Below are positions 2,624-14,499 of a stretch of 32,000 nucleotides of DNA, piece by piece (the first letter of the stretch is position 1; each line of letters begins with the position of its first letter). Location: contig NZ_CP088239.1 of assembly GCF_021054785.1 (NCBI RefSeq), forward strand, positions 1,680,001 to 1,712,000, given 5' to 3'. The DNA comes from Tannockella kyphosi (GTDB taxonomy: Bacteria; Bacillota_I; Bacilli_A; Erysipelotrichales; Coprobacillaceae). Made by a program: the position numbers and the translations under genes. The notes below the pieces were generated by a model. The model was not told where the DNA came from and did no database searches. It saw only the letters and a program-made list of their open reading frames with translations.

Positions 2624-3505
2624 ATGAAAGAAAATTATCATACTCACACATTCCGCTGTGGCCATGCCACAGGGAGTGAAGAAGAAATGATTCTAGGTGC
2701 TATGGAAGGTGGTTTTACAACCTTAGGAATGTCTTGCCATATACCATTACCTAACTTCCGTAAGCATTTATTAAGAGGGGTACCTTATCTATCATCCTTT
2801 GATAATGCCAAAACATTATTCCGTTGGTTTTGTTTCAATGGATTAGGTACAAGAATGCCTTATCCCTCAAAAAAAGAACATTTATCAATTATCAAAGAAC
2901 TAAAAGAAAAATATAAAGATCAAATTACTATCTATCAAGGTTTTGAAGCAGAATACTTTGAAGAATATTTGGATTATTATCAAAGTTTATTAGATAATCA
3001 AGAAGTTGATTATCTAATATTAGGAAATCATTTTCATAAAATTTGTTGTGATGCTTGTTACAATGGTTTTGCTTTAGATAAAGAAGGAATTGAAAACTAT
3101 GGAAAAGATGCTTGTCTCGCAATGGAGACTGGTCTTTATAGTTATTTTTGTCATCCTGATTTATTTATGGCAGAAACAGTAGAATTCGATGAAACATGTG
3201 TTCAAATCACAAGAGATATTTGTACATGTGCTATTAAGAACAATATTCCATTAGAAATAAATGAAGGCGGCTTTAGAAGAGGTATTAAAAAGATCGGAAA
3301 TCAAACACGTCTTCCTTATCCTCATGATGAGTTTTGGAAGATTGTTGGAGAAATGGGGGCTCCTGTTGTTTTAGGTTTAGACAGTCATAACCCTAATGAA
3401 TTTTCAAAAAAAGAAGTAGCTGATTTAGAAAACTATGCTAAAAAGATGAACTTAACTGTCATCCCTTCTTTTGAGTTTAAAAAAGGAAAGAAGAAGGATT
3501 GTTAA
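2624..3505 (+). CDS. PHP-domain phosphatase, HisJ (histidinol-phosphatase) family, paralogue 1
   Basis: 293 aa. N-terminal YHTHTFRCGHA metal-binding motif, with later HPD and LGLDSH motifs typical of PHP/HisJ-family phosphoesterases. Confidence 0.8.
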   Translation: MKENYHTHTFRCGHATGSEEEMILGAMEGGFTTLGMSCHIPLPNFRKHLLRGVPYLSSFDNAKTLFRWFCFNGLGTRMPYPSKKEHLSIIKELKEKYKDQITIYQGFEAEYFEEYLDYYQSLLDNQEVDYLILGNHFHKICCDACYNGFALDKEGIENYGKDACLAMETGLYSYFCHPDLFMAETVEFDETCVQITRDICTCAIKNNIPLEINEGGFRRGIKKIGNQTRLPYPHDEFWKIVGEMGAPVVLGLDSHNPNEFSKKEVADLENYAKKMNLTVIPSFEFKKGKKKDC

Positions 3506-4387
3506 ATGAAGAAAAATTATCACACTCATACCTATCGTTGTGGTCATGCTAGTGGTAGTGAAGAAGACATGGTAGTACAAGCAATTGCATCCGGTTTAGA
3601 TACGATTGGTATTAGTTGCCATTCTCCACTACCTTATTTTAGACTCTTTATGATTCGCTCATTTGGATATGTTCGTTCTATCTTTGCTGCAAAATTCTTA
3701 ACAAAATGGATTGTAGCAGATGGATTTGGTAGTCGTTTACCTTATCGTACCAAAAATGAACATCTTCAAATTATAAAAGAATTAAAAGAAAAATATAAAG
3801 ATCAAATGACTATATATGCTGGTTTTGAAGCAGAATGGTTTGTTCAATATGCTAATTACTTTCAATCTTTATTAGATAACAAAGAAGTAGATTATTTAAT
3901 ATTAGGTCTTCATTATGATCGTTACAACTGCATGGATCGCTATTACTTACGTATTAGTGATGACGCTAGTTTGGTCCGTTATGGACAAAATGCATGTTAT
4001 GCCATGGATACAGGATTATTTAGTTATTTCTGTCATCCTGATTTATTTATGTCAACAAAAGCAGAGTTCAATGAAACATGTCAAAAAATCACAAGAGACA
4101 TTTGTCACAGTGCTTTAAAAAACAATGTCCCTCTAGAAGTGAATGCTGGTGGTTTCCGCCGTGGTTTAAAACAAATTGGAGATCATGAACGTTATCCATA
4201 CCCTCATGATGAATTTTGGAAGATTGTAAGTGAACTAGAAGTACCTGTTGTTTTAGGCTTAGATGCTCATGCACCAGAACAATTATGCAAAGAAGAATAT
4301 GATCAATTAGAAGCTTATGCTAAAAGATTAAATCTAAAAGTTATTGATACTTTTGAATTTAAAAAGGGCACTACGAAAAGTGTGTAA
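3506..4387 (+). CDS. PHP-domain phosphatase, HisJ family, paralogue 2 (tandem duplicate)
   Basis: 293 aa, colinear without gaps with the preceding gene and sharing the same motifs (YHTHTYRCGHA, FCHPDLFM, YPYPHDEFWKIV). The start ATG directly abuts the stop of paralogue 1 (TAAATG). Confidence 0.8.
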   Translation: MKKNYHTHTYRCGHASGSEEDMVVQAIASGLDTIGISCHSPLPYFRLFMIRSFGYVRSIFAAKFLTKWIVADGFGSRLPYRTKNEHLQIIKELKEKYKDQMTIYAGFEAEWFVQYANYFQSLLDNKEVDYLILGLHYDRYNCMDRYYLRISDDASLVRYGQNACYAMDTGLFSYFCHPDLFMSTKAEFNETCQKITRDICHSALKNNVPLEVNAGGFRRGLKQIGDHERYPYPHDEFWKIVSELEVPVVLGLDAHAPEQLCKEEYDQLEAYAKRLNLKVIDTFEFKKGTTKSV

Positions 4388-4410
4388 CAACCGTTACACA
4401 CTTCTTTATT
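4380..4410 (+). terminator. Rho-independent terminator of the PHP gene pair
   Basis: GTGTGTAAC-aacc-GTTACACAC (4380-4401) followed by TTCTTTATT. The stem overlaps the stop codon. Confidence 0.6.
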
Positions 4411-4492
4411 ATAATAAAGGATAAATTCATTTTGGTTACAATAAGACATTATCATAAGTTAATCAGTAATAGATATTTTGAAACTAATTTTA

Positions 4493-4521
4493 TTGACTCT
4501 TCGCCAAAAAATGGGTATACT
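4493..4521 (+). promoter_or_regulatory. Sigma-A type promoter of the candidate antisense sRNA (module copy 1)
   Basis: TTGACT (4493-4498), 17-nt spacer, TATACT (4516-4521). Confidence 0.55.
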
Positions 4522-4527
4522 ATTTAC

Positions 4528-4585
4528 GAGGTAAGTAGATATGCCAAAGAAAAAAGAGATCCGCAAGATCTCTTTTTCCGTTCTT
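4528..4585 (+). ncRNA. Candidate antitoxin-like antisense sRNA (module copy 1), ~55-60 nt
   Basis: Predicted start is ~7 nt after the -10. It ends at hairpin AAAAAGAGATC-cgcaa-GATCTCTTTTT (4551-4577). The RNA is convergent with, and overlaps the 3' end of, the peptide mRNA. Its 5' part carries TAAGTAGATAT, which is repeated at 4605-4615. Confidence 0.45.
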
Positions 4586-4625
4586 TCGAACTAATCGTTG
4601 GAGTTAAGTAGATATTAGGCGTTAG

Positions 4626-4679
4626 TTATCTTTTTAAGATAACCGCAATCAATACAAGAACTACAATAAGTAGTTCCAT
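4626..4679 (-). CDS. 17-aa hydrophobic peptide MELLIVVLVLIAVILKR (candidate type I toxin)
   Basis: Below the ORF-track size cutoff; found by reading the minus strand. AGGAGG (rc of 4687-4692), 7-nt spacer, ATG 4679, TAA 4626-4628. A diverged paralogue with the same layout lies at 11700-11756. Confidence 0.5.
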   Translation of the reverse strand: MELLIVVLVLIAVILKR

Positions 4680-4690
4680 AATCAATCCTC

Positions 4691-4732
4691 CTAATTCAAA
4701 CTCGACCTCCAACAAAATACATCTTTAGTCAT
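4691..4732 (-). CDS. 13-codon upstream ORF (MTKDVFCWRSSLN) whose TAG overlaps the SD of the peptide ORF
   Basis: GGAGG (rc 4741-4745), 8-nt spacer, ATG 4732. The stop TAG (4691-4693) is the first part of TAGGAGG. The same arrangement is seen at 11644-11685. Confidence 0.25.
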   Translation of the reverse strand: MTKDVFCWRSSLN

Positions 4733-4758
4733 ACTATTTTCCTCCATCGACTGATAAT

Positions 4759-4767
4759 ATTATAACA
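4759..4767 (-). promoter_or_regulatory. Extended -10 promoter (TGtTATAAT) for the peptide mRNA of module copy 1
   Basis: The reverse complement of 4759-4767 reads TGTTATAAT. There is no good -35. The same extended -10 string recurs in front of tnpA, the IS transposase and the surface-protein gene. Confidence 0.4.
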
Positions 4768-5176
4768 TATTCTCCTAATTAAAATAATCTTTTCAATGAT
4801 AATTCTGTAACTATATTTGAATGTGCTCAAGCTAGTATTTATTCATTTGATATATCCTGATTTATAACTACTTCTGCATGATTTATCGCATATTTCATAA
4901 CATCCCATAAAGACGGTATCATTTGACATATATGTGAAAATCTTGGAGTTCTCCCTTAGAAGCTTATGCCAAAAGATTGAATCTAAAAGTTATTGATACT
5001 TTTGAATTTAAAAAAGGCACTACGAAAAGTGTGTAACAACCGTTACACACTTCTCTATTATAATAAAGGATAAATTCATTTTGGTTACAATAAGACATTA
5101 TCATATTTGGAAGACAGAATAGATATTTTGAAACTAATTTTATTGACTCTTCGTCAAAAATGGGTATACTATTTAC

Positions 5177-5234
5177 GAGGTAAGTAGATATGCCAAAGAA
5201 AAAGAGATCTTCGGGGATCTCTTTTTCCGTTCTT
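5177..5234 (+). ncRNA. Candidate antisense sRNA, module copy 2
   Basis: TTGACT 5143-5148, 16-nt spacer, TATACT 5165-5170. Hairpin AAAAAGAGATC-ttcggg-GATCTCTTTTT (5199-5226); the stem is conserved and the loop differs from copy 1. Confidence 0.4.
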
Positions 5235-5274
5235 TCGAACTAATCGTTGGAGTTAAGTAGATATTAGGCGTTAG

Positions 5275-5327
5275 TTATCTTTTTAAGATAACCGCAATCA
5301 ATACAAGAACTACAATAAGTAGTTCCA
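5275..5327 (-). pseudogene. Peptide ORF of module copy 2 that has lost its start codon, SD, uORF and promoter to the IS junction
   Basis: Codons 2-17 and the stop are identical to copy 1. The position of the ATG now reads TTG, with IS terminal sequence and no SD upstream. Confidence 0.45.
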
Positions 5328-7235
5328 ATGGAGTCAACTTAAGGTAATACCTTAGTTGGCTCTTTTTTGATTTTACTCAATTATTTTCACTATGACTCCC
5401 CTAACTAAAAAAAGCGCATAATCCCCCTTATGAAATCTCGCTATTTTTTCAAATATTCTTATGTTATAATAATTTTAGTTCTTAACTACGGTTTTATCGT
5501 TTGATGATAACCATTCTTAGCTAATAGCTTAGGATGATTTCTTCCATCAAGCGTAAACCTGTATTTGATGGCACCGACTATAATTCGGCCCCATCTTTGA
5601 TTGTGTCTATCAGGGCGGGTAGGCACTTTTATTTTGTCCACTATTATTAAGATATTCTCCACTAGTTCTATTATCTTCTTCCTTCGCTGCTTGTACATGT
5701 TAAACACTAGTTGGTTGGATCGTACTAGAATAATTAATTGTGTAATATTAATGGCATACTGTTTCTCATTCTTTTGAAGTAGTACATTATTTATATGTTT
5801 ACGGGTTACACCAACAATATTAAAGAATAATATTTTTCCATAGATACAACATTTTGTTATATTCGATTTACAACTAATTGACCTTTCCCATTCCATTGTT
5901 GACTTTAATGTTTTATAACTCACTTCAACATCCCATCGTTTTGTATATAAATCAATAATTCCTTGAGTACTGAACGTCTCTTCGCTTAAATTGGTAAAGA
6001 ATAATAGTTCCTTTTCTATATCTTCTCCTTTTTTATTTTGATACACATATTTTGATTTTACTACACGGATTTTCATTATGGGATTTTCTTCTCTTAATTG
6101 TATAGCTTCTGAAGAGTAACGAAATCTTTTCACCCATTTTTTATCTACATTTACATGAATCCACTCATCATCACCGGTCATAGCAGCTACTTCTTTTTTA
6201 TAAAAGTATGATTTCCCTCGAATGCAGTAGTTATACTCAAAGGATTCTAACGTAGAAATGATTTCTACCGATCCATAGTACCTGTCCGCTAAGTAAATGA
6301 CTTTATTATTGTTTAGGATATTTTTAGTATGATATAAATGTCGAAAGCTTAAAGGAGTTTCAGAACATTTTGCTTGTTCCATAGAAAAATCCAGGAACAA
6401 ACCATTGGTAACATCATATAGTCCAGCAGATTTAGAAACGACAGTTTTAACGTCATATATTGTTTGTACCGTTCTAGACTGGGAGAAATTAAATTCATTG
6501 ATATTATGTAAACTATAAGGAATTTGTATTGTAGTCCCATCTTCAGCTAAAAGAATAAAACCTTTATGTTTTTTTACTAATGAACTTTGATAGAACAACT
6601 TCGCAAATTCCTTCATCAAATAATGAAATACATTCGGGTTTAGTTTATTTGCCGCTTGATATAAAGCTTGCTTACTAACACGATCCATCTTATTGTTCAT
6701 TAATGCATAGAAGTTAGTGAGCTCTGTATTTGTATTGGCAGAGCATCTTGATAAAAAGTAGTAGATAAGTTTTGAATGCGTTAAATTACGGTTTCTCGTA
6801 AAGTCCGTTGCATTTGTTCTGGAAAGCTCTCTTACAGTGGAAGACTGAATAATCTTATCGAAGTTTAAAAAAGTTTTGATAACTCTTTCTTAACTACGCG
6901 ATTCTTCATCATAAACTAAACGTGGTTTCTTTTTTGCGAAAGCAGCCTTTAAGTAAGGAACACTTTCACCATCAACTAGCCCAAAGTTGATAATAACACG
7001 ATGTTTAGGAGTATCACCATCACGATATGATTCTACTAAAGCACAATAATACTTAGATGTATCTCCTTTATTATTTTTTACAGCCCTTAAAAACATAAAA
7101 TCACCTCTTTCTTAACTACATTATAACATAAAATATATATATTATAAATATAAACTATAATATTCCTTAACTACAAGATGAATTTTATCGCAAAAAAGAG
7201 CCAACTAAGTTATTACCTTAAGTTGGCTCCATTGG
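5325..7235 (-). mobile_element. IS1634/IS4-like insertion sequence (~1.9 kb)
   Basis: 44-nt terminal inverted repeats with 2 mismatches (5325-5368 vs rc of 7192-7235). They enclose a DDE transposase reading frame. Each IR contains a 13-bp hairpin followed by T6 pointing inward. Confidence 0.75.
5486..7096 (-). pseudogene. IS1634-family (IS4-related DDE) transposase interrupted by one in-frame TAA
   Basis: ORFs 6890..7096 (68 aa, MFLRAVKNNKGD..YCALVESYRDG..) and 5486..6700 (404 aa) are in the same frame. My translation of 6701-6889 is open, so the only interruption is TAA at 6890-6892. Catalytic signature: LLAEDGT, YLADRYY and YTKRWDVEVSYKTLK, an exact Y-2-R-3-E-6-K motif. Confidence 0.7.
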
Positions 7236-9609: not shown

Positions 9610-10878
9610 CTAATTTTTCAAACACCCTAAGGGAACCACAAAAACTCCGTCTTTTCTTTGATACGCTAAATTTCCACCTGTTAAAATCATCATAAAAGAT
9701 GGTTCTTTCATTTTATCAGTATTTATTTTATCTCGTATTTTAAGCAAGTGTTCTGCTGCTTCATCTAGCTTTGAACCAAGTTTCACTTCCACAGCAGCCC
9801 ATCTTCCATCATTTAGAGCAATAATTGCATCACATTCAAGTCCACTCGAATCCCTAAAATGGAAAATTTGTCCATCAATAGAATCAGCATACACTTTTAA
9901 ATCCCTTGAACATAATGCTTCAAATAAAAAACCAAAATAATTAAAATCTTCCAGTAGTCGTTCTGGTGTCATTGCCATAATTGCAGTAGCAATAGAAGGA
10001 TCCACAAACTGTCTTTTAGGAGAAGTACGTATCGCTGATTTTGAACGTAACGAAGGATTCCAAGCTGGTATATTATCTATTACAAATATTCGTTCTAGTG
10101 CCAACAAGTATTGGCTAATACTTTTTTCTGACAAACTATCACCAATGTCACCATCGGCTATATCATCATGCAATATCTTAATTGTTGCAAGTGTTGAAAT
10201 ATTTCTTGATAAAGAACGCATAAGAGCTCTAACCCTTGCAGGATTTTTTTGTATATCGTCAACTTCCGATACATCTTGATTTATAACAGCTTCAACATAA
10301 TCAATAGCGTTCCTTAAAGCAACTTTCTCTGGTTGACCTACAGATGCAGGCCATCCTCCTCTAACAATTGCTAAAGCAATCTGCTCAATAGTTAATTCAC
10401 TCATCGAATCAATATTTGTTTTCCCATTAAATAAATCAACAAGCTAAACTGTACCATTTGATTCCTTCGATTCAAAAAGACTCATTGTTCTCATTGTCAT
10501 ACGAGAAATTCTTCCCGTTCCAGTGTGCTCCACCACATTATCACGTGGTACTGCTGAACCTGTTAAAATGAACTGTCCTAATTCTCCACGCATATCAACT
10601 GCATATCTTACGGCATCCCATAAAACCGGTGCCATCTGCCACTCAGCCAAAAGTCTAGGAGTTTCTCCCTTTAATAACAATGACGGTTTCACATCAGCCA
10701 CTTGTTGATAAGATGTTCTATTATCCAGATTTTGCATAAATAATTGACTATTAGAGTTTTCCATTGCTGTTCTTGTTTTTCCACACCATTTGGCACCCTC
10801 AATTAAAACAGCACCAGTGGCTTCAAGACGTTCTTTTAATATTTTATCTGCTATTCGTGGTATATAATCTCTTGTCAT
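9610..10878 (-). pseudogene. AAA+ ATPase with C-terminal DUF4143 (PD-(D/E)xK-like) domain, interrupted by one in-frame TAG
   Basis: ORF 10444..10878 has the P-loop (IEGAKWCGKTRTA). ORF 9610..10404 has the DUF4143-type C-terminus (..ECDAIIALNDGRWAAVEVKLG). The two are in the same frame, the 13 codons between them are open, and the only break is TAG 10444-10446. Confidence 0.75.
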
Positions 10879-10997
10879 CTATATCACCCGCCTTTGTTAA
10901 AAACAACTATACACCAACTTTTGAAATTATCAATGTTTTACTCCCGAAATTATTATTACTTTAAAAAATAAAAAATCAATCACAAAATACTACTTTG

Positions 10998-11262
10998 ATA
11001 CTCATTTTATTGACGCTTCGTAAAAAACGAGTATACTATTTACGAGGTAAGCAGATATGGCAAAGAAAAAGAGATCTTGGGGATCTCTTTTTTCGTTCTT
11101 TCGAACTAATCGTTGGAGTTAAGTAGATATTAGGCGTTAGTTATCTTTTTAAGATAACCGCAATCAATACAAGAACTACACTAAGTAGTTTCTCTCTAAT
11201 TCAAAATTGGTCTCTAGTATTATGGCTTATCCACCTGATTAAATGAGTATTTTCAATGATGT
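10998..11262. repeat. Degenerate third copy of the sRNA/peptide module
   Basis: Aligns with 4485-4800. The sRNA promoter, direct repeats, terminator and peptide codons 3-17 are recognisable. The SD+ATG region is deleted and about 46 nt of leader/promoter are missing. Confidence 0.8.
11044..11100 (+). ncRNA. Candidate antisense sRNA, module copy 3 (orphan)
   Basis: TTGACG 11010-11015, 16-nt spacer, TATACT 11032-11037. Hairpin AAAAAGAGATC-ttggg-GATCTCTTTTT (11066-11092). Confidence 0.35.
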
Positions 11263-11643
11263 TTTTTTAATTCCAACCAAAAATATCCCCTTTATACGTA
11301 AGATATCTTTTTCATACAATTACTATTATTTTTACCATTATCAAGAAGTATATCTACTATAAATGCTAACATAAAGATAACCTCTCTTTTTCCTTAACAG
11401 CGTACATGTTAAAGCGTTGTTAACCCCTTAACCCAAAAGGCTTGTCCAATACAATTGGATCATACCTTTTTAAATATAGAGGACAATATTATGAAATCAT
11501 CTATTTCATAATATCATACTTTTTCAAATCGTGCCAACCTCAGTTTTGATTCCTGCAAAGAGCGAGTTTCGCTCCGAAGTTGTTCGAGTTTTGTCTATTT
11601 TTGTAGTATAATAGATATGTTATTGAATACGGAGGACATGTTT

Positions 11644-11685
11644 ATGAATAAATTAAATTTGTCTCAATTAGGAGGTAATCTTTAG
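11644..11685 (+). CDS. 13-codon upstream ORF (MNKLNLSQLGGNL) whose TAG overlaps the SD of the downstream peptide ORF
   Basis: GGAGG 11631-11635, 8-nt spacer, ATG 11644. TAG 11683-11685 runs into GGGGAGG. Confidence 0.25.
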   Translation: MNKLNLSQLGGNL

Positions 11686-11699
11686 GGGAGGAAAGAAAA

Positions 11700-11756
11700 G
11701 TGAACGATGTAATTATCGTACTTATTCTAATAGTGTATATCCTAAAACACTGTTAG
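11700..11756 (+). CDS. 18-aa hydrophobic peptide (M)NDVIIVLILIVYILKHC (candidate type I toxin, family-2 paralogue)
   Basis: GGGGAGG 11685-11691, 8-nt spacer, GTG 11700, TAG 11754-11756. The composition pattern matches MELLIVVLVLIAVILKR: an acidic residue near the N-terminus, an aliphatic core, then ILK plus a basic residue. Confidence 0.45.
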   Translation: MNDVIIVLILIVYILKHC

Positions 11757-11794
11757 GTTTCCTAATCTAACTTTTTGTCCTCCATTTGAGATAA

Positions 11795-11847
11795 CAACGA
11801 AAAAAAGAGAGATGCTAGTCTCTCTTTTTTCATCTAACTTTTTGTCC
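11795..11847 (-). ncRNA. Candidate antisense sRNA of the family-2 module (~50 nt)
   Basis: Extended -10 TGATATAAT (rc of 11854-11862). The predicted 5' end GGACAAAAAGTTAGAT (rc of 11832-11847) is perfectly complementary to 11765-11780 in the peptide mRNA 3' UTR. The RNA ends at the shared terminator. Confidence 0.4.
11801..11830. terminator. Bidirectional rho-independent terminator of the family-2 module
   Basis: AAAAAAGAGAGA-tgctag-TCTCTCTTTTTT, with an A-tract on one side and a T-tract on the other. Confidence 0.6.
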
Positions 11848-12012
11848 AAAATCATTATATCATACTTTCTCAAATCGTACTAGGTTATTTTTGACAGGCT
11901 AATAGCATCAAATCTTCTAGCGATATAATCTTTAATTCCATTATATTCATTATAACAAAAGGCACCCAGCTTTAAGTAACAAAAGTGAGAACACTTTTAT
12001 TAGAAAAACTGG

Positions 12013-12498
12013 TTACTTTATGTTAGCATTTATATCTACCGCTTTTTTGCTTTTCATATAAGATGCATCCGTTTTAAGATTTTTCCTATTCTCTACCAGC
12101 AGTTCTTCATAATATTTAGGGTCATCATATATTTTTTGAAGTATTTTTGAATACTGTTTCGTTGGAACATCACCATCACAGTATCTAGAGAATGTTTGCT
12201 CAGCCCAACCCAACAATAATGACAAAGATCGTTTCCCTATCGCATATTTTTTAGGTATTTTTGAAATTGTTTCTAAAGAAACAATACCATGTTTTTCTCT
12301 GTACTCATCATATAACATCTTCAAATTATGATCCATTATTTCTTTAACATAAATTTCAGTATTGCAATCAATACAACGTGCCACTTTACCCAAATAACTA
12401 AATTTTTCACCTTTTAAAGTTCCTTCTATTTGAGCATTAACAATAGTGAATTCTACATCATCTCTACATTCTTCACAATAACCTAGCAGGAAGCCCAC
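12013..12498 (-). CDS. Zn-ribbon + HTH regulator (MqsA/YgiT-like architecture), with its 5' end displaced by the IS200/IS605 insertion
   Basis: CEEC..(34 aa)..CIDC zinc-ribbon spacing, followed by an HTH-like segment (KRSLSLLLGWAEQTFSRYCDGDVPTKQ). The annotated GTG start lies inside the IS left-end hairpin. A plausible original start with SD lies at 14729 on the other side of the IS. Confidence 0.55.
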   Translation of the reverse strand: MGFLLGYCEECRDDVEFTIVNAQIEGTLKGEKFSYLGKVARCIDCNTEIYVKEIMDHNLKMLYDEYREKHGIVSLETISKIPKKYAIGKRSLSLLLGWAEQTFSRYCDGDVPTKQYSKILQKIYDDPKYYEELLVENRKNLKTDASYMKSKKAVDINANIK

Positions 12499-12575: not shown

Positions 12576-12974
12576 ATGAAAGAATATAGAAAAACAAAAA
12601 CAACAACCTCGTTAATTAATTATCATTTTATCTTTTGTCCAAGGTATCGTAGAAAAATATTTTTAATTCCAAATGTAGAAGAAAGGCTTAAAATCATAGT
12701 GGAAGAAACTTGCAAGGAATTAGAAATTGAAATTATTGCTATGGAATGTGATAAGGATCATATTCATTTGTTTATAAACGCATTACCAAAATATAGCCCT
12801 AGCGAAATTATGCAAAAAATAAAAAGGAAAAGTGGGTTGATATTAAGAAGTGAATTTTCAGAGTTGAATCAGATGAAAAGTTTGTGGACAAGAAGCTATT
12901 TTGTTTCAACTGCCGGTGTTGTTAGTAGCGAAACAATAAAGAGATATGTAGAAAGCCAGAGAAAAAGATATTAA
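12576..12974 (+). CDS. tnpA: IS200/IS605 family Y1 (HUH) transposase TnpA
   Basis: 132 aa. YHFIFCPRYRRKIF, HUH motif DHIHLFI and catalytic-Tyr region TRSYFVSTAG. Confidence 0.9.
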   Translation: MKEYRKTKTTTSLINYHFIFCPRYRRKIFLIPNVEERLKIIVEETCKELEIEIIAMECDKDHIHLFINALPKYSPSEIMQKIKRKSGLILRSEFSELNQMKSLWTRSYFVSTAGVVSSETIKRYVESQRKRY

Positions 12975-13002
12975 ATATCGAAATCAAGAAGGGAGAAACT
13001 TC

Positions 13003-14499
13003 ATGAGTAATTTTTGTATAACAATTCCATTAAAAACAGAAACCTATCAAGAACATATATTAGAAAAACGTTTTGAAATTGGTAGAAAAATATATAATTC
13101 TTTAATTGTTATCACTCAAAAACGATATAGAGAAATGACAAAAACAAAAGAATATAAATACATTATGAAACAATATAAGCGAATTCATGAAGGACATCCT
13201 AAAGCTGGTGTAACAAAGAAAGACCTAGCTAACCGATTAAAAGAAATGCAAAGAGAATATCGTTTATCCGAATATGATTTTCATAAAGATGTAAAAGAAT
13301 TACAACATTGTTTTCGTGAAAATATTGATTCAAACACGTCTCAAAAGATTGCTACGAATTTATGGAAAGCTTATAGCAAAGTAATGTTTAGTGATGGAAA
13401 AGAAATTCATTTTAAAAAGTATGGAGAATTCACTTCGTTAGAAGGAAAATCAAATACAAGTGGAATTCGTCTCGTAAATGAAACACTTATTTGGAATGGT
13501 CTTATTATTCCTGTTATCATTAATCATTCTAATAGTTATGAAAATGAATGTTTTCAAAACCCTCATTATAAAATCTGTTATAATCGAACACTTCAAAAAG
13601 AAATTAGAGGAAAGTATAAATACTATCTACAAGTAGTTTTTAAAGGAACTCCTCCTGTAAAATACAATCCAACGACTGGTGAAGTAAAGAATCCTAAAAG
13701 AGATGGTGTTGTAGGTATTGACTTAGGTACGCAAACGATTGCCTATTGCTCTAACAAAGAAGTAGGATTGATTGAGTTAGCTGATAAAGTACCAAATCTA
13801 GAAAAGAAAAAGCGAATCATTTCTAGAAAAATGGATCGTAGTAGACGAGCTATGAATCCTAATAACTATAACGAAGATGGAACTACTAAAACAGGGGCTA
13901 GAAAATGGAAGAACTCCAATCGCTATCTTCGATTAAGAAGCGAACTAAGAGAGCTTAGTAGAAAACAAGCAGCTATTCGAAAGTTACAACATGAGACCTT
14001 AGCAAATCATCTTTTAACATTAGGAACGACCATTTATGTAGAAACAATGCATTATAAAGGATTGCAAAAACGAGCAAAGAAAACAACGGTTAATGAAAAG
14101 ACAGGTAAGTTCAATCGTAAAAAACGTTTCGGCAAGTCTTTAGGAGAAAAAGCTCCTGCTATGTTTGTAGAAATTTTGAATAGAAAGCTAAACTACATAG
14201 ATAAAGAAGTTTTAAAAGTAAACAACTATACAACCAAAGCAAGTCAATACAACCATGTTAATCAAACATACAAGAAGAAAAAACTATCTCAAAGATGGAA
14301 TAAAATAGAACACAACAACGAAGTGATAATAGTACAAAGAGATTTATATAGTTCTTATTTATTAATGAATATGAACGAAGATTTAAAAACAATGAATCAA
14401 GAAAAATGTGAAATGAATTTTGAAAGATTTTTAATCAAACATAACCAAGAAGTAGAAAGATTAAAAGGAAAGAAAAACCTTTCTAGTATTGGCATTTAA
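13003..14499 (+). CDS. tnpB: TnpB-family (OrfB_IS605, RuvC-like) RNA-guided-nuclease homologue, 498 aa, lacking zinc-finger cysteines
   Basis: N-terminus fits the TnpB pattern (..IPLKTETYQEHILEKRFEIGRKIYNSL). RuvC motifs are VGIDLGTQT, IYVETMHYKGL and VQRDLYSSYLL. GGGAG lies upstream of the ATG. Confidence 0.85.
   Translation: MSNFCITIPLKTETYQEHILEKRFEIGRKIYNSLIVITQKRYREMTKTKEYKYIMKQYKRIHEGHPKAGVTKKDLANRLKEMQREYRLSEYDFHKDVKELQHCFRENIDSNTSQKIATNLWKAYSKVMFSDGKEIHFKKYGEFTSLEGKSNTSGIRLVNETLIWNGLIIPVIINHSNSYENECFQNPHYKICYNRTLQKEIRGKYKYYLQVVFKGTPPVKYNPTTGEVKNPKRDGVVGIDLGTQTIAYCSNKEVGLIELADKVPNLEKKKRIISRKMDRSRRAMNPNNYNEDGTTKTGARKWKNSNRYLRLRSELRELSRKQAAIRKLQHETLANHLLTLGTTIYVETMHYKGLQKRAKKTTVNEKTGKFNRKKRFGKSLGEKAPAMFVEILNRKLNYIDKEVLKVNNYTTKASQYNHVNQTYKKKKLSQRWNKIEHNNEVIIVQRDLYSSYLLMNMNEDLKTMNQEKCEMNFERFLIKHNQEVERLKGKKNLSSIGI

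Follow-up and report, generated by a model that had tools for sequence, protein, structure and literature searches.

Is the short, convergently transcribed locus at positions 4493-4767 of the DNA stretch studied here a toxin gene with its own antisense RNA antitoxin, or does its compact architecture serve some other function? The stretch comprises 32,000 nucleotides (nt) from the genome of Tannockella kyphosi (contig NZ_CP088239.1, positions 1,680,001 to 1,712,000) and is referred to as the window, to which all coordinates below apply. The species (Coprobacillaceae, Erysipelotrichia) comes from the gut of a herbivorous fish and is cited in Kyphosus fish gut studies; no report of a toxin-antitoxin (TA) system of type I in Erysipelotrichia was found in the full-text literature searched. 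A preliminary description of the locus, designated here module A, had proposed an arrangement similar to the enterococcal par (Fst) locus, encoding a peptide in the size range of the Escherichia coli Ibs toxins.

In this work, we extended that description by scans of the whole window, repeat and homology searches, and RNA folding and pairing predictions. According to our results, module A is probably a type I TA module, a reading to which we assign a probability of about two in three. The sequence data are best read as a previously undescribed family, and no member of the Fst family, with the details of regulation held less firmly than the type I assignment.

Results

Module A combines features that together exceed chance

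The promoters, the Shine-Dalgarno (SD) sequence, the 17-codon open reading frame (ORF), the hairpin and the 11-mer repeat listed in the preliminary description were all recovered in place by sequence reading and scans (Table 1). The peptide messenger, on the minus strand, is predicted to start from an extended -10 box without a good -35 element, and for this reason its promoter was not reported by a two-hexamer scan. Its 17-codon ORF, with product MELLIVVLVLIAVILKR (17 amino acids, aa), is preceded by a 13-codon upstream ORF (product MTKDVFCWRSSLN) whose UAG stop (4693-4691) overlaps the AGGAGG of the peptide. On the plus strand, a convergent promoter would drive a small antisense RNA, and a single hairpin (AAAAAGAGATC-CGCAA-GATCTCTTTTT, with a GAGATC/GATCTC core) would terminate both transcripts, as A- and T-tracts on its two sides give a U-tract after the hairpin in either direction. 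The 11-mer TAAGTAGATAT is present at both 4532-4542 and 4605-4615, within an extended repeat identical at 14 of 15 positions (4528-4542 versus 4601-4615). As had been claimed, it is through this repeat that the 5' tail of the small RNA can pair with the peptide mRNA beyond the terminator overlap, and the copy in the 3' untranslated region (3'UTR) is the proposed target of that tail.

Taken together, these features exceed chance. In a scan of the whole window for start-to-stop ORFs of 12-60 aa (n=1112), a perfect AGGAGG at 4-10 nt was found for the module A peptide ORF only; 25 small ORFs of the window bear an SD, and 4 of these lie inside two 0.3-kb modules, namely A and the paralogue D described below. 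A flanking direct repeat of at least 11 nt occurs at about 1% of random positions and, among the 15 perfect hairpins of the window, is found at the module hairpins only. Furthermore, positions 4000-5600 contain 7 terminator-like sites versus 0.5 expected, a 14-fold excess in 1.6 kb.

Another ORF opens within the predicted small RNA of module A (4541-4594, plus strand, product MPKKKEIRKISFSVLSN) and is probably not a gene: its frame is lost in copy C, its stop falls past the terminator, and D has no SD for the matching ATG. An ATG just ahead of the terminator A-tract is present in the predicted small RNAs of A, B, C and D. The module was also considered as an attenuator or leader peptide for a downstream gene, an option rejected because the next genes are convergent at both A and D.

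The layout recurs in a paralogue of unrelated sequence

The preliminary description did not include the upstream ORF ending on the peptide SD, nor three further occurrences of the module in the window, which thus holds four: the intact module A, copies B and C, and the diverged paralogue D. Module D (11607-11862, on the strand opposite to A) was found by a scan for SD-bearing small hydrophobic ORFs. A and D display no BLAST-detectable DNA similarity, yet they share the order and geometry of their parts, so that the layout first proposed for A (a strong SD ahead of a small hydrophobic ORF, a small-RNA promoter convergent with it and a two-way terminator) is encountered a second time. Both modules have a 13-codon upstream ORF with a GGAGG, an 8-nt spacer and an ATG, whose UAG stop abuts the next SD; in D its product is MNKLNLSQLGGNL and its stop (TAG, 11683-11685) lies 1 nt ahead of the peptide SD. 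Both also have a direct repeat, of which one copy lies 8-10 nt past the peptide stop and the second 6-7 nt downstream of the antisense -10 box, a position that makes this second copy the predicted 5' end of the small RNA. The repeat of D is a perfect 16-mer, unrelated in sequence to the 11-nt repeat of A. No stronger evidence for a functional layout is available than this recurrence with unrelated sequence.

The D peptide, MNDVIIVLILIVYILKHC, is encoded by 18 codons (stop 11754-11756) and is identical to the A peptide at 9 of 17 positions, with four conserved residues specified by different synonymous codons. Identities at the three codon positions amount to 7, 13 and 8 of 17, and the differing core positions are mostly hydrophobic-for-hydrophobic. 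D was the best non-self match to the A peptide among the 22,386 six-frame 17-mers of the window, and a degenerate pattern of SD, start codon and peptide derived from A and D matched within the window only these two modules. Peptide similarity alone is not convincing, and it is the shared architecture that carries the argument for a relationship. An RNAalifold analysis on a MAFFT alignment of A and D was discarded, the alignment being unreliable at such divergence, and its pair counts were not used.

A strain variant differs from module D at three positions: one at the foot of the terminator and two in the upstream ORF, of which one is synonymous, turning a predicted U·G pair into C·G, and the other is non-synonymous and falls in a predicted internal loop. 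The variant has the same 18-codon ORF, and the length of its leader ORF is kept. About 25 nt belonging to the 3' end of the MqsA-like gene next to D (TATAAATGCTAACATAAAG, 12013-12040) are repeated in inverted orientation at about 11358-11382, between C and D, as might result from an earlier inversion or a partial duplication in this region around D.

Copies B and C have lost the peptide start and kept the putative antisense gene

Copies B and C were identified by repeat search. In copy B, one end of an insertion sequence has taken the place of the SD and ATG, only a TTG without SD remains, and homology to A ends exactly at the peptide start codon, where this insertion sequence of about 1.9 kb starts. 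Copy C is placed at an unrelated locus, with its SD and ATG deleted and one mismatch in its small-RNA repeat (TAAGCAGATAT). Both copies retain the antisense promoter hexamers, the terminator stem and the 3'UTR; the terminator loops vary among A, B and C (CGCAA, TTCGGG and TTGGG). As judged from these elements, the peptide could be made by one of the three copies (A) and the antisense RNA by all three, and B and C would fit toxin decay with antitoxin retention. Since A, B and C are 91-96% similar, they provide no covariation evidence.

Copy B belongs to a 649-bp tandem duplication that also holds the 3' end of the upstream PHP-phosphatase gene (4307-4456/4956-5105: PHP-phosphatase 3' end, terminator and module, 97% identity), and the PHP-phosphatase gene is itself one of two tandem paralogues (2624-3505 and 3506-4387, 73-78% DNA identity). 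The neighbouring insertion sequence (5325-7235), which encodes a 404-aa DDE_Tnp_1 transposase (5486-6700, minus strand), is bounded by terminal inverted repeats of 45 nt, at 5325-5369 and 7191-7235, that are 96% complementary. The module is not continued on its far side, and therefore a rearrangement is likely, rather than a simple insertion.

Differences between A and C (4475-4700 versus 10991-11200) are unevenly distributed, with about 10 in the 85 nt of the antisense promoter and small-RNA 5' region and only 2 in about 100 nt of the ORF 3' part and 3'UTR, though C cannot make the peptide; gene conversion or a constraint on the RNA itself are possible causes. In addition, a second copy of the D antisense promoter region (11506-11532, 25/27 identical) forms a strong minus-strand promoter, TTGGCA-18-TGaTATTAT, overlapping a 12-bp hairpin (11486-11514). 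Downstream of it are a 26-codon ORF with SD (MLAFIVDILLDNGKNNSNCMKKISYV, 11291-11371) and then the start-less copy C, which may therefore be transcribed as the tail of that longer minus-strand RNA.

Table 1. Positions of the predicted elements of modules A and D and of copies B and C in the window.
Element	Position	Strand	Details
Module A, intact	4493-4767		
A, peptide mRNA promoter	4759-4767 (reverse complement)	-	Extended -10 TGtTATAAT; sequence reading
A, predicted peptide mRNA	4545..4752	-	~208 nt; start ~4752, to U-tract past terminator
A, leader ORF with SD	4691..4745	-	GGAGG 4745-4741, 8-nt spacer, ATG 4732; ORF 4732-4691
A, peptide ORF with SD	4626..4692	-	AGGAGG 4692-4687, 7-nt spacer, ATG 4679, stop 4628-4626; ORF 4679..4626
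A, direct repeat copy 1	4601..4615	-	mRNA 3'UTR, 10 nt past stop
A, two-way intrinsic terminator hairpin	4551..4577	both	11 bp
A, predicted antisense small RNA	4528..4582	+	~55 nt; 5' end is repeat copy 2 (4528-4542)
A, small-RNA promoter	4493..4521	+	TTGACT-17-TATACT; 10/12 consensus matches (promoter scan)
Copy B	5124..5328	-	3'UTR and ORF codons 2-17 retained
B, small-RNA promoter	5143-5170	+	TTGACT-16-TATACT
B, terminator	5198-5227		
Copy C	10991..11200	-	3'UTR and ORF remnant 11194..11141
C, small-RNA promoter	11010-11037	+	TTGACG-16-TATACT
C, terminator	11065-11093		
D, peptide mRNA -10 box	11607..11612	+	TATAAT; predicted start ~11620
D, predicted peptide mRNA	11620..11836	+	~217 nt
D, leader ORF with SD	11631..11685	+	GGAGG 11631-11635, 8-nt spacer, ATG 11644
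D, peptide ORF with SD	11687..11756	+	GGAGG 11687-11691, 8-nt spacer, GTG 11700
D, direct repeat copy 1	11765..11780	+	ATCTAACTTTTTGTCC; 3'UTR, 8 nt past stop
D, two-way terminator hairpin	11800..11831		
D, predicted antisense small RNA	11795..11847	-	~50 nt; 5' end is repeat copy 2 (11832-11847)
D, small-RNA promoter	11854..11862	-	Extended -10 TGaTATAAT; sequence reading

Predicted RNA pairing and folding

Duplexes between the small-RNA tail and the 3'UTR of the same module were predicted at -16.6 kcal/mol for A, an energy reached by 5 of 1000 shuffles, and at -22.6 kcal/mol for D, reached by none of 1000. The cross pairs were not significant (A tail with D mRNA, -12.6 kcal/mol, 268/1000 shuffles; D tail with A mRNA, -9.0 kcal/mol, 371/1000). 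The pairing is thus predicted to be cognate-specific, from which it follows that the interaction region would have co-evolved within each module.

With dinucleotide shuffles as controls, the peptide mRNAs are predicted to be strongly folded: the minimum free energy was -63.4 kcal/mol for the 208-nt mRNA of A (z -5.6) and -60.2 kcal/mol for that of D (z -4.8), and none of 200 shuffles was as stable in either case. The 55-nt small RNA of A gave a z of -4.1. Independent minimum-energy folds of the A and D mRNAs present the same Y-shaped topology, in which a long closing stem pairs the leader (the 3' half of the upstream ORF and the peptide SD) with the 3'UTR and encloses two hairpins, one over codons 1-7 and the other at the end of the ORF, including the last codons and the stop. 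In A, UUGUUGGAG/CUCCAACGA form the outer 9-bp helix, and in D, UUGUCUCAA/UUGAGAUAA; when the two helices are aligned in a common register, chosen by eye, 4 pairs are changed on both sides. Shuffling the 3'UTR only weakened the fold, native energy being reached in 3 of 300 (A) and 9 of 300 (D) cases, and the leader-3'UTR duplex of D was matched by none of 1000 shuffles.

The SD of the upstream ORF is predicted to be mostly open, with an unpaired probability of 0.79 in A and 0.93 in D. When the upstream ORF was forced to be single-stranded, mimicking a translating ribosome, the peptide SD became more accessible, its unpaired probability rising in A from 0.25 to 0.85 and in D from 0.39 to 0.69.

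Genomic context

The modules are located within a 10-kb accessory patch between housekeeping operons, which contains the DDE insertion sequence, a large GLUG-motif protein, a split AAA_14/DUF4143 ATPase, the MqsA-like gene and an IS200-type transposase. The 161-aa MqsA-like protein (12013-12498, minus strand) matches WP_249028941.1 from Tannockella kyphosi, which is annotated as an MqsA-family antitoxin of a type II TA system, at 100% identity; its Pfam MqsA_antitoxin hit is weak (18.5 bits versus a cutoff of 30), and no obvious partner toxin gene adjoins it. Positions 12576-14499 encode an IS200-type Y1 transposase (132 aa, PF01797) followed by a 498-aa ORF without a Pfam hit at E up to 0.001, in the position where a TnpB-like partner is expected after a transposase of this type. 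At 9610-10878 (minus strand), AAA_14 (144 aa) and DUF4143 (264 aa) fall on adjacent ORFs; these domains usually constitute one ATPase, and therefore the two ORFs probably represent a single gene that was split or frameshifted. Among Rfam families, a cobalamin riboswitch alone exceeds its threshold in the window (RF00174, 29903-30015, minus strand; 35.3 bits versus a gathering cutoff of 31.5).

Discussion

Proposed mode of action

Both modules contain a small hydrophobic peptide ORF (17 and 18 aa) with translation signals (AGGAGG or GGAGG at 7-8 nt) on predicted mRNAs of 208 and 217 nt, together with a putative antisense gene having promoter and terminator motifs of its own, an overlap of about 35-44 nt and a cognate tail duplex of 15-16 nt. 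From these elements we propose that the peptide, encoded on an mRNA of roughly 210 nt, is a hydrophobic helix of 17-18 residues, polar or acidic at its N-terminus and basic at its C-terminus, which would insert into the membrane and damage it. The full-length mRNA would be poorly translatable owing to the predicted leader-3'UTR fold-back; ribosomes on the upstream ORF may open this fold-back and allow translation of the peptide, a coupling resembling that of mok and hok. The convergent small RNA of about 50-55 nt would act as the antitoxin, docking through the shared terminator and its first 15-16 nt. By analogy with Gram-positive systems overlapping at their 3' ends, the outcome that we favour is a duplex-triggered cleavage by which the mRNA would lose its protective terminator and decay; a reinforced translational silence is a possible alternative. 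Control from the 3' end has a known example in SR4 of Bacillus subtilis, which binds there and in doing so both promotes decay and changes the pairing of the distant SD (PMC3834814).

Several observations weigh against this interpretation. The repression step is its weakest part: the small-RNA target lies in the 3'UTR and not at the start site, and blocking it in silico left the SD no more closed. Pairing of the peptide SD with the 3'UTR was no better than with shuffled 3'UTRs (native values reached by 118/300 in A and 128/300 in D), the leader-3'UTR duplex of A is only modestly significant (47/1000 shuffles), and the A leader also pairs well with the D 3'UTR through generic GGAGG/CCUCC and UUAGG/CCUAA motifs. 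The hydrophobic run of the peptides, 12-13 residues, is short for a membrane span, and their similarity is largely compositional, with a BLOSUM score of 35 versus 32 for the best unrelated hydrophobic segment. A Pfam search of the peptide at E up to 10 gave no family match, and the sole Rfam hit of the module, RF02848 (RefB11, Enterococcus), was far below threshold.

Moreover, no homologue was found outside the T. kyphosi lineage in plasmids, phages, representative genomes, metagenomes, viral contigs, predicted proteins or the loci of neighbour homologues, and conservation rests on the two paralogues A and D and one near-identical strain variant. A blastn search with 4440-4800 gave no match in plasmid and phage collections, nor did the six-frame translations of the module, joined into one protein query so as to detect spurious gene calls over further copies, among 5.8 billion predicted proteins. 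A 20-mer from the small-RNA 5' region matched representative genome contigs once, in a coding region of an unrelated metagenome-assembled genome where similarity did not extend beyond it, which we attribute to chance; the same 20-mer and a 26-mer from the 3'UTR had no match in viral contigs, and a 20-mer from the 3'UTR target had none in metagenome contigs. The degenerate A and D pattern did not occur in metagenomes or viral contigs, nor did two looser patterns of peptide and stop in viral contigs. Module sequences were found only in a few Logan read-set assemblies, including one contig identical across module D. The orthologous PHP-gene locus of the next species and the loci of MqsA-like homologues in other taxa hold no module; the PHP-gene contigs of a 95%-identical strain end about 20 nt past the gene, at the repeated terminator.

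Alternative explanations

The alternative that best survives, unlikely as we consider it, is that the locus encodes a small non-toxic membrane peptide, for instance a modulator of a transporter or sensor, tuned by the cis-antisense RNA, the upstream ORF and mRNA structure; it would then be an RNA-regulated small-protein gene, with no role in addiction or defence. Such a gene would agree equally well with the translation signals, with the hydrophobic nature of the peptide and with the antisense layout, and the short hydrophobic run would be more easily understood, being short for a pore-former. However, the module is multi-copy, with decayed peptide genes beside retained antisense genes, it sits amid mobile elements and TA-type genes (the insertion sequence, the IS200-type transposase and the MqsA-like antitoxin), and it has no conserved protein-coding partner gene; multiple copies in a mobile patch without a partner are typical of a type I TA system rather than of an accessory subunit.

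We regard as improbable that the modules are a repeated non-coding element between genes, either a structured small RNA or a mobile repeat, in which the 17-codon ORF would be a by-product of U-rich sequence. This would account for the 99-100% conservation of the ORF 3' part and 3'UTR in the untranslatable B and C, for the position of the sole substitution in the C ORF, which lies in a hairpin loop, for the highly structured mRNA and for the weak resemblance to an Rfam entry annotated as a small RNA. It does not account for D, which, beyond BLAST detection, keeps a spaced SD, a start codon, a 17/18-codon ORF and the upstream ORF, as well as the hydrophobic positions with synonymous codon changes and a Lys at position 16; neither is the module bounded by terminal repeats or target-site duplications.

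Hardly credible, finally, is a precursor of a short hydrophobic signalling peptide (of the SHP or iCF10 style) under counter-transcript control as at prgQ/Anti-Q: although the peptides are small and hydrophobic, the MqsA-like helix-turn-helix gene adjoins module D and convergent RNA control is known in pheromone plasmids, no RRNPP-, Rgg- or PrgX-type regulator adjoins A or D, module A lies downstream of the PHP-phosphatase gene with no regulator nearby, the charge pattern of the A and D peptides, a polar or acidic N-terminus followed by a basic C-terminus, is the reverse of that of SHP-type precursors, and the decayed copies retain the antisense gene only.

Comparison with known systems

The closest DNA layout is that of par (Fst/RNA I-RNA II) from Enterococcus faecalis pAD1, within the Fst/Ldr superfamily, with which A and D share convergent promoters and a two-way intrinsic terminator, a direct repeat transcribed both ways that provides a second complementarity outside the overlap, an mRNA of about 200-230 nt with an antisense RNA of about 40-55 nt, and possibly, by prediction, an intramolecular structure at the SD and 5' region (PMC7472228). 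The preliminary designation as par-like stands as to this DNA layout and does not extend further. The par repeats DRa and DRb lie over the fst translation start, and Fst requires a PXXXG motif (PMC7472228), whereas the repeat of A and D is in the 3'UTR, over neither SD nor start, and their peptides (MELLIVVLVLIAVILKR and MNDVIIVLILIVYILKHC), at 17-18 aa against the 33 of Fst, have no Pro or Gly. Further, par has a local 5' stem-loop on its SD, in contrast to A and D, where the predicted SD partner is the 3'UTR, and par lacks a leader ORF.

The Rfam hit to RF02848 scored 23.4 bits in A, 20.5 in B and 18.8 in C versus a gathering cutoff of 54, with no match in D. Membership of RefB11 was rejected, as these scores are sub-threshold, the reading frame is different and D is not matched; A, B and C, being near-identical, are not independent. 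The RF02848 consensus, filed as an Enterococcus small RNA, reads through an ORF ending in SLVIAPLFVGLVILLVDHWLDD and a stop codon, with an Fst-type PXXXG; by its sequence, the family resembles the mRNA of an Fst-type toxin more than it does a non-coding RNA.

Among other Gram-positive systems, the antisense RNA is likewise convergent and overlaps the toxin mRNA at its 3' end in SprA1/SprA1as of Staphylococcus aureus and in bsrG/SR4 and txpA/RatA of B. subtilis. Fst/RNAII and SprA1/SprA1as are the only systems for which functional pairing outside this overlap is on record (PMC8594479); unlike the small RNAs of A and D, SprA1as pairs with the toxin translation start and not with the 3'UTR. In the B. 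subtilis systems, the overlap includes part of the ORF and the toxins have 29-59 aa. None of the three has a leader ORF or sequence similarity to the modules.

A regulatory leader ORF upstream of the toxin ORF and a predicted 5'-3' fold-back of the full-length mRNA are traits that A and D would share with the group formed by the enterobacterial hok/sok (with mok) and ldr/rdl and by Helicobacter AapA1/IsoA1. In these, however, the antisense RNA is encoded inside the mRNA region and acts at the 5' side, on the leader-ORF or toxin start, whereas that of A and D is convergent at the 3' end; mok overlaps hok, whereas the leader ORF of A and D ends 11-14 nt before the toxin start; and the toxins have 30-50 aa and belong to Gram-negative hosts.

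Regarding peptide size, the preliminary comparison with Ibs was borne out, the A peptide having 17 aa versus 19 in IbsC. Type I toxins usually have 20-60 aa (PMC8594479), slightly above the 17-18 aa of A and D. IbsC retains its toxicity after truncation to 15 aa, provided that at least 10 residues are hydrophobic (PMC8309996), which makes a toxin of 17-18 aa plausible, and type I toxins typically have a C-terminus that is basic and cytosolic (PMC8309996). Ibs/Sib of E. coli also resembles the modules in hydrophobic type and multi-copy loci. It differs in that the Sib RNA is antisense to the whole ibs ORF (PMC8594479), as opposed to a module A small RNA ending about 50 nt from the stop codon, in that IbsC has no basic C-terminus and its host is Gram-negative, and in the lack of a terminator-flanking repeat and of a leader ORF.

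We tentatively suggest, as a possibility that we would not yet call probable, that the combination of a par-type DNA layout with a hok/mok-type leader ORF, a 5'-3' fold-back, 3'UTR docking and a toxin of 17-18 residues, which may be at or below the shortest known, defines a new type I family of the T. kyphosi lineage. If true, this would add a TA family in the class Erysipelotrichia, set the minimum length of membrane toxins found in nature at 17 residues, and indicate that a leader ORF with mRNA fold-back, thought to be typical of Gram-negative bacteria, can be combined with the convergent-terminator layout of Gram-positive ones. Two diverged paralogues with non-cross-reacting RNA tails in one genome would also constitute a compact test system for antisense docking at the 3'UTR, at loci of a kind that standard annotation does not see. 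Candidate type I families are found regularly by computation; among them, A and D stand out by their combination of devices, their very short toxin, their unexplored host class and their occurrence as a pair of paralogues.

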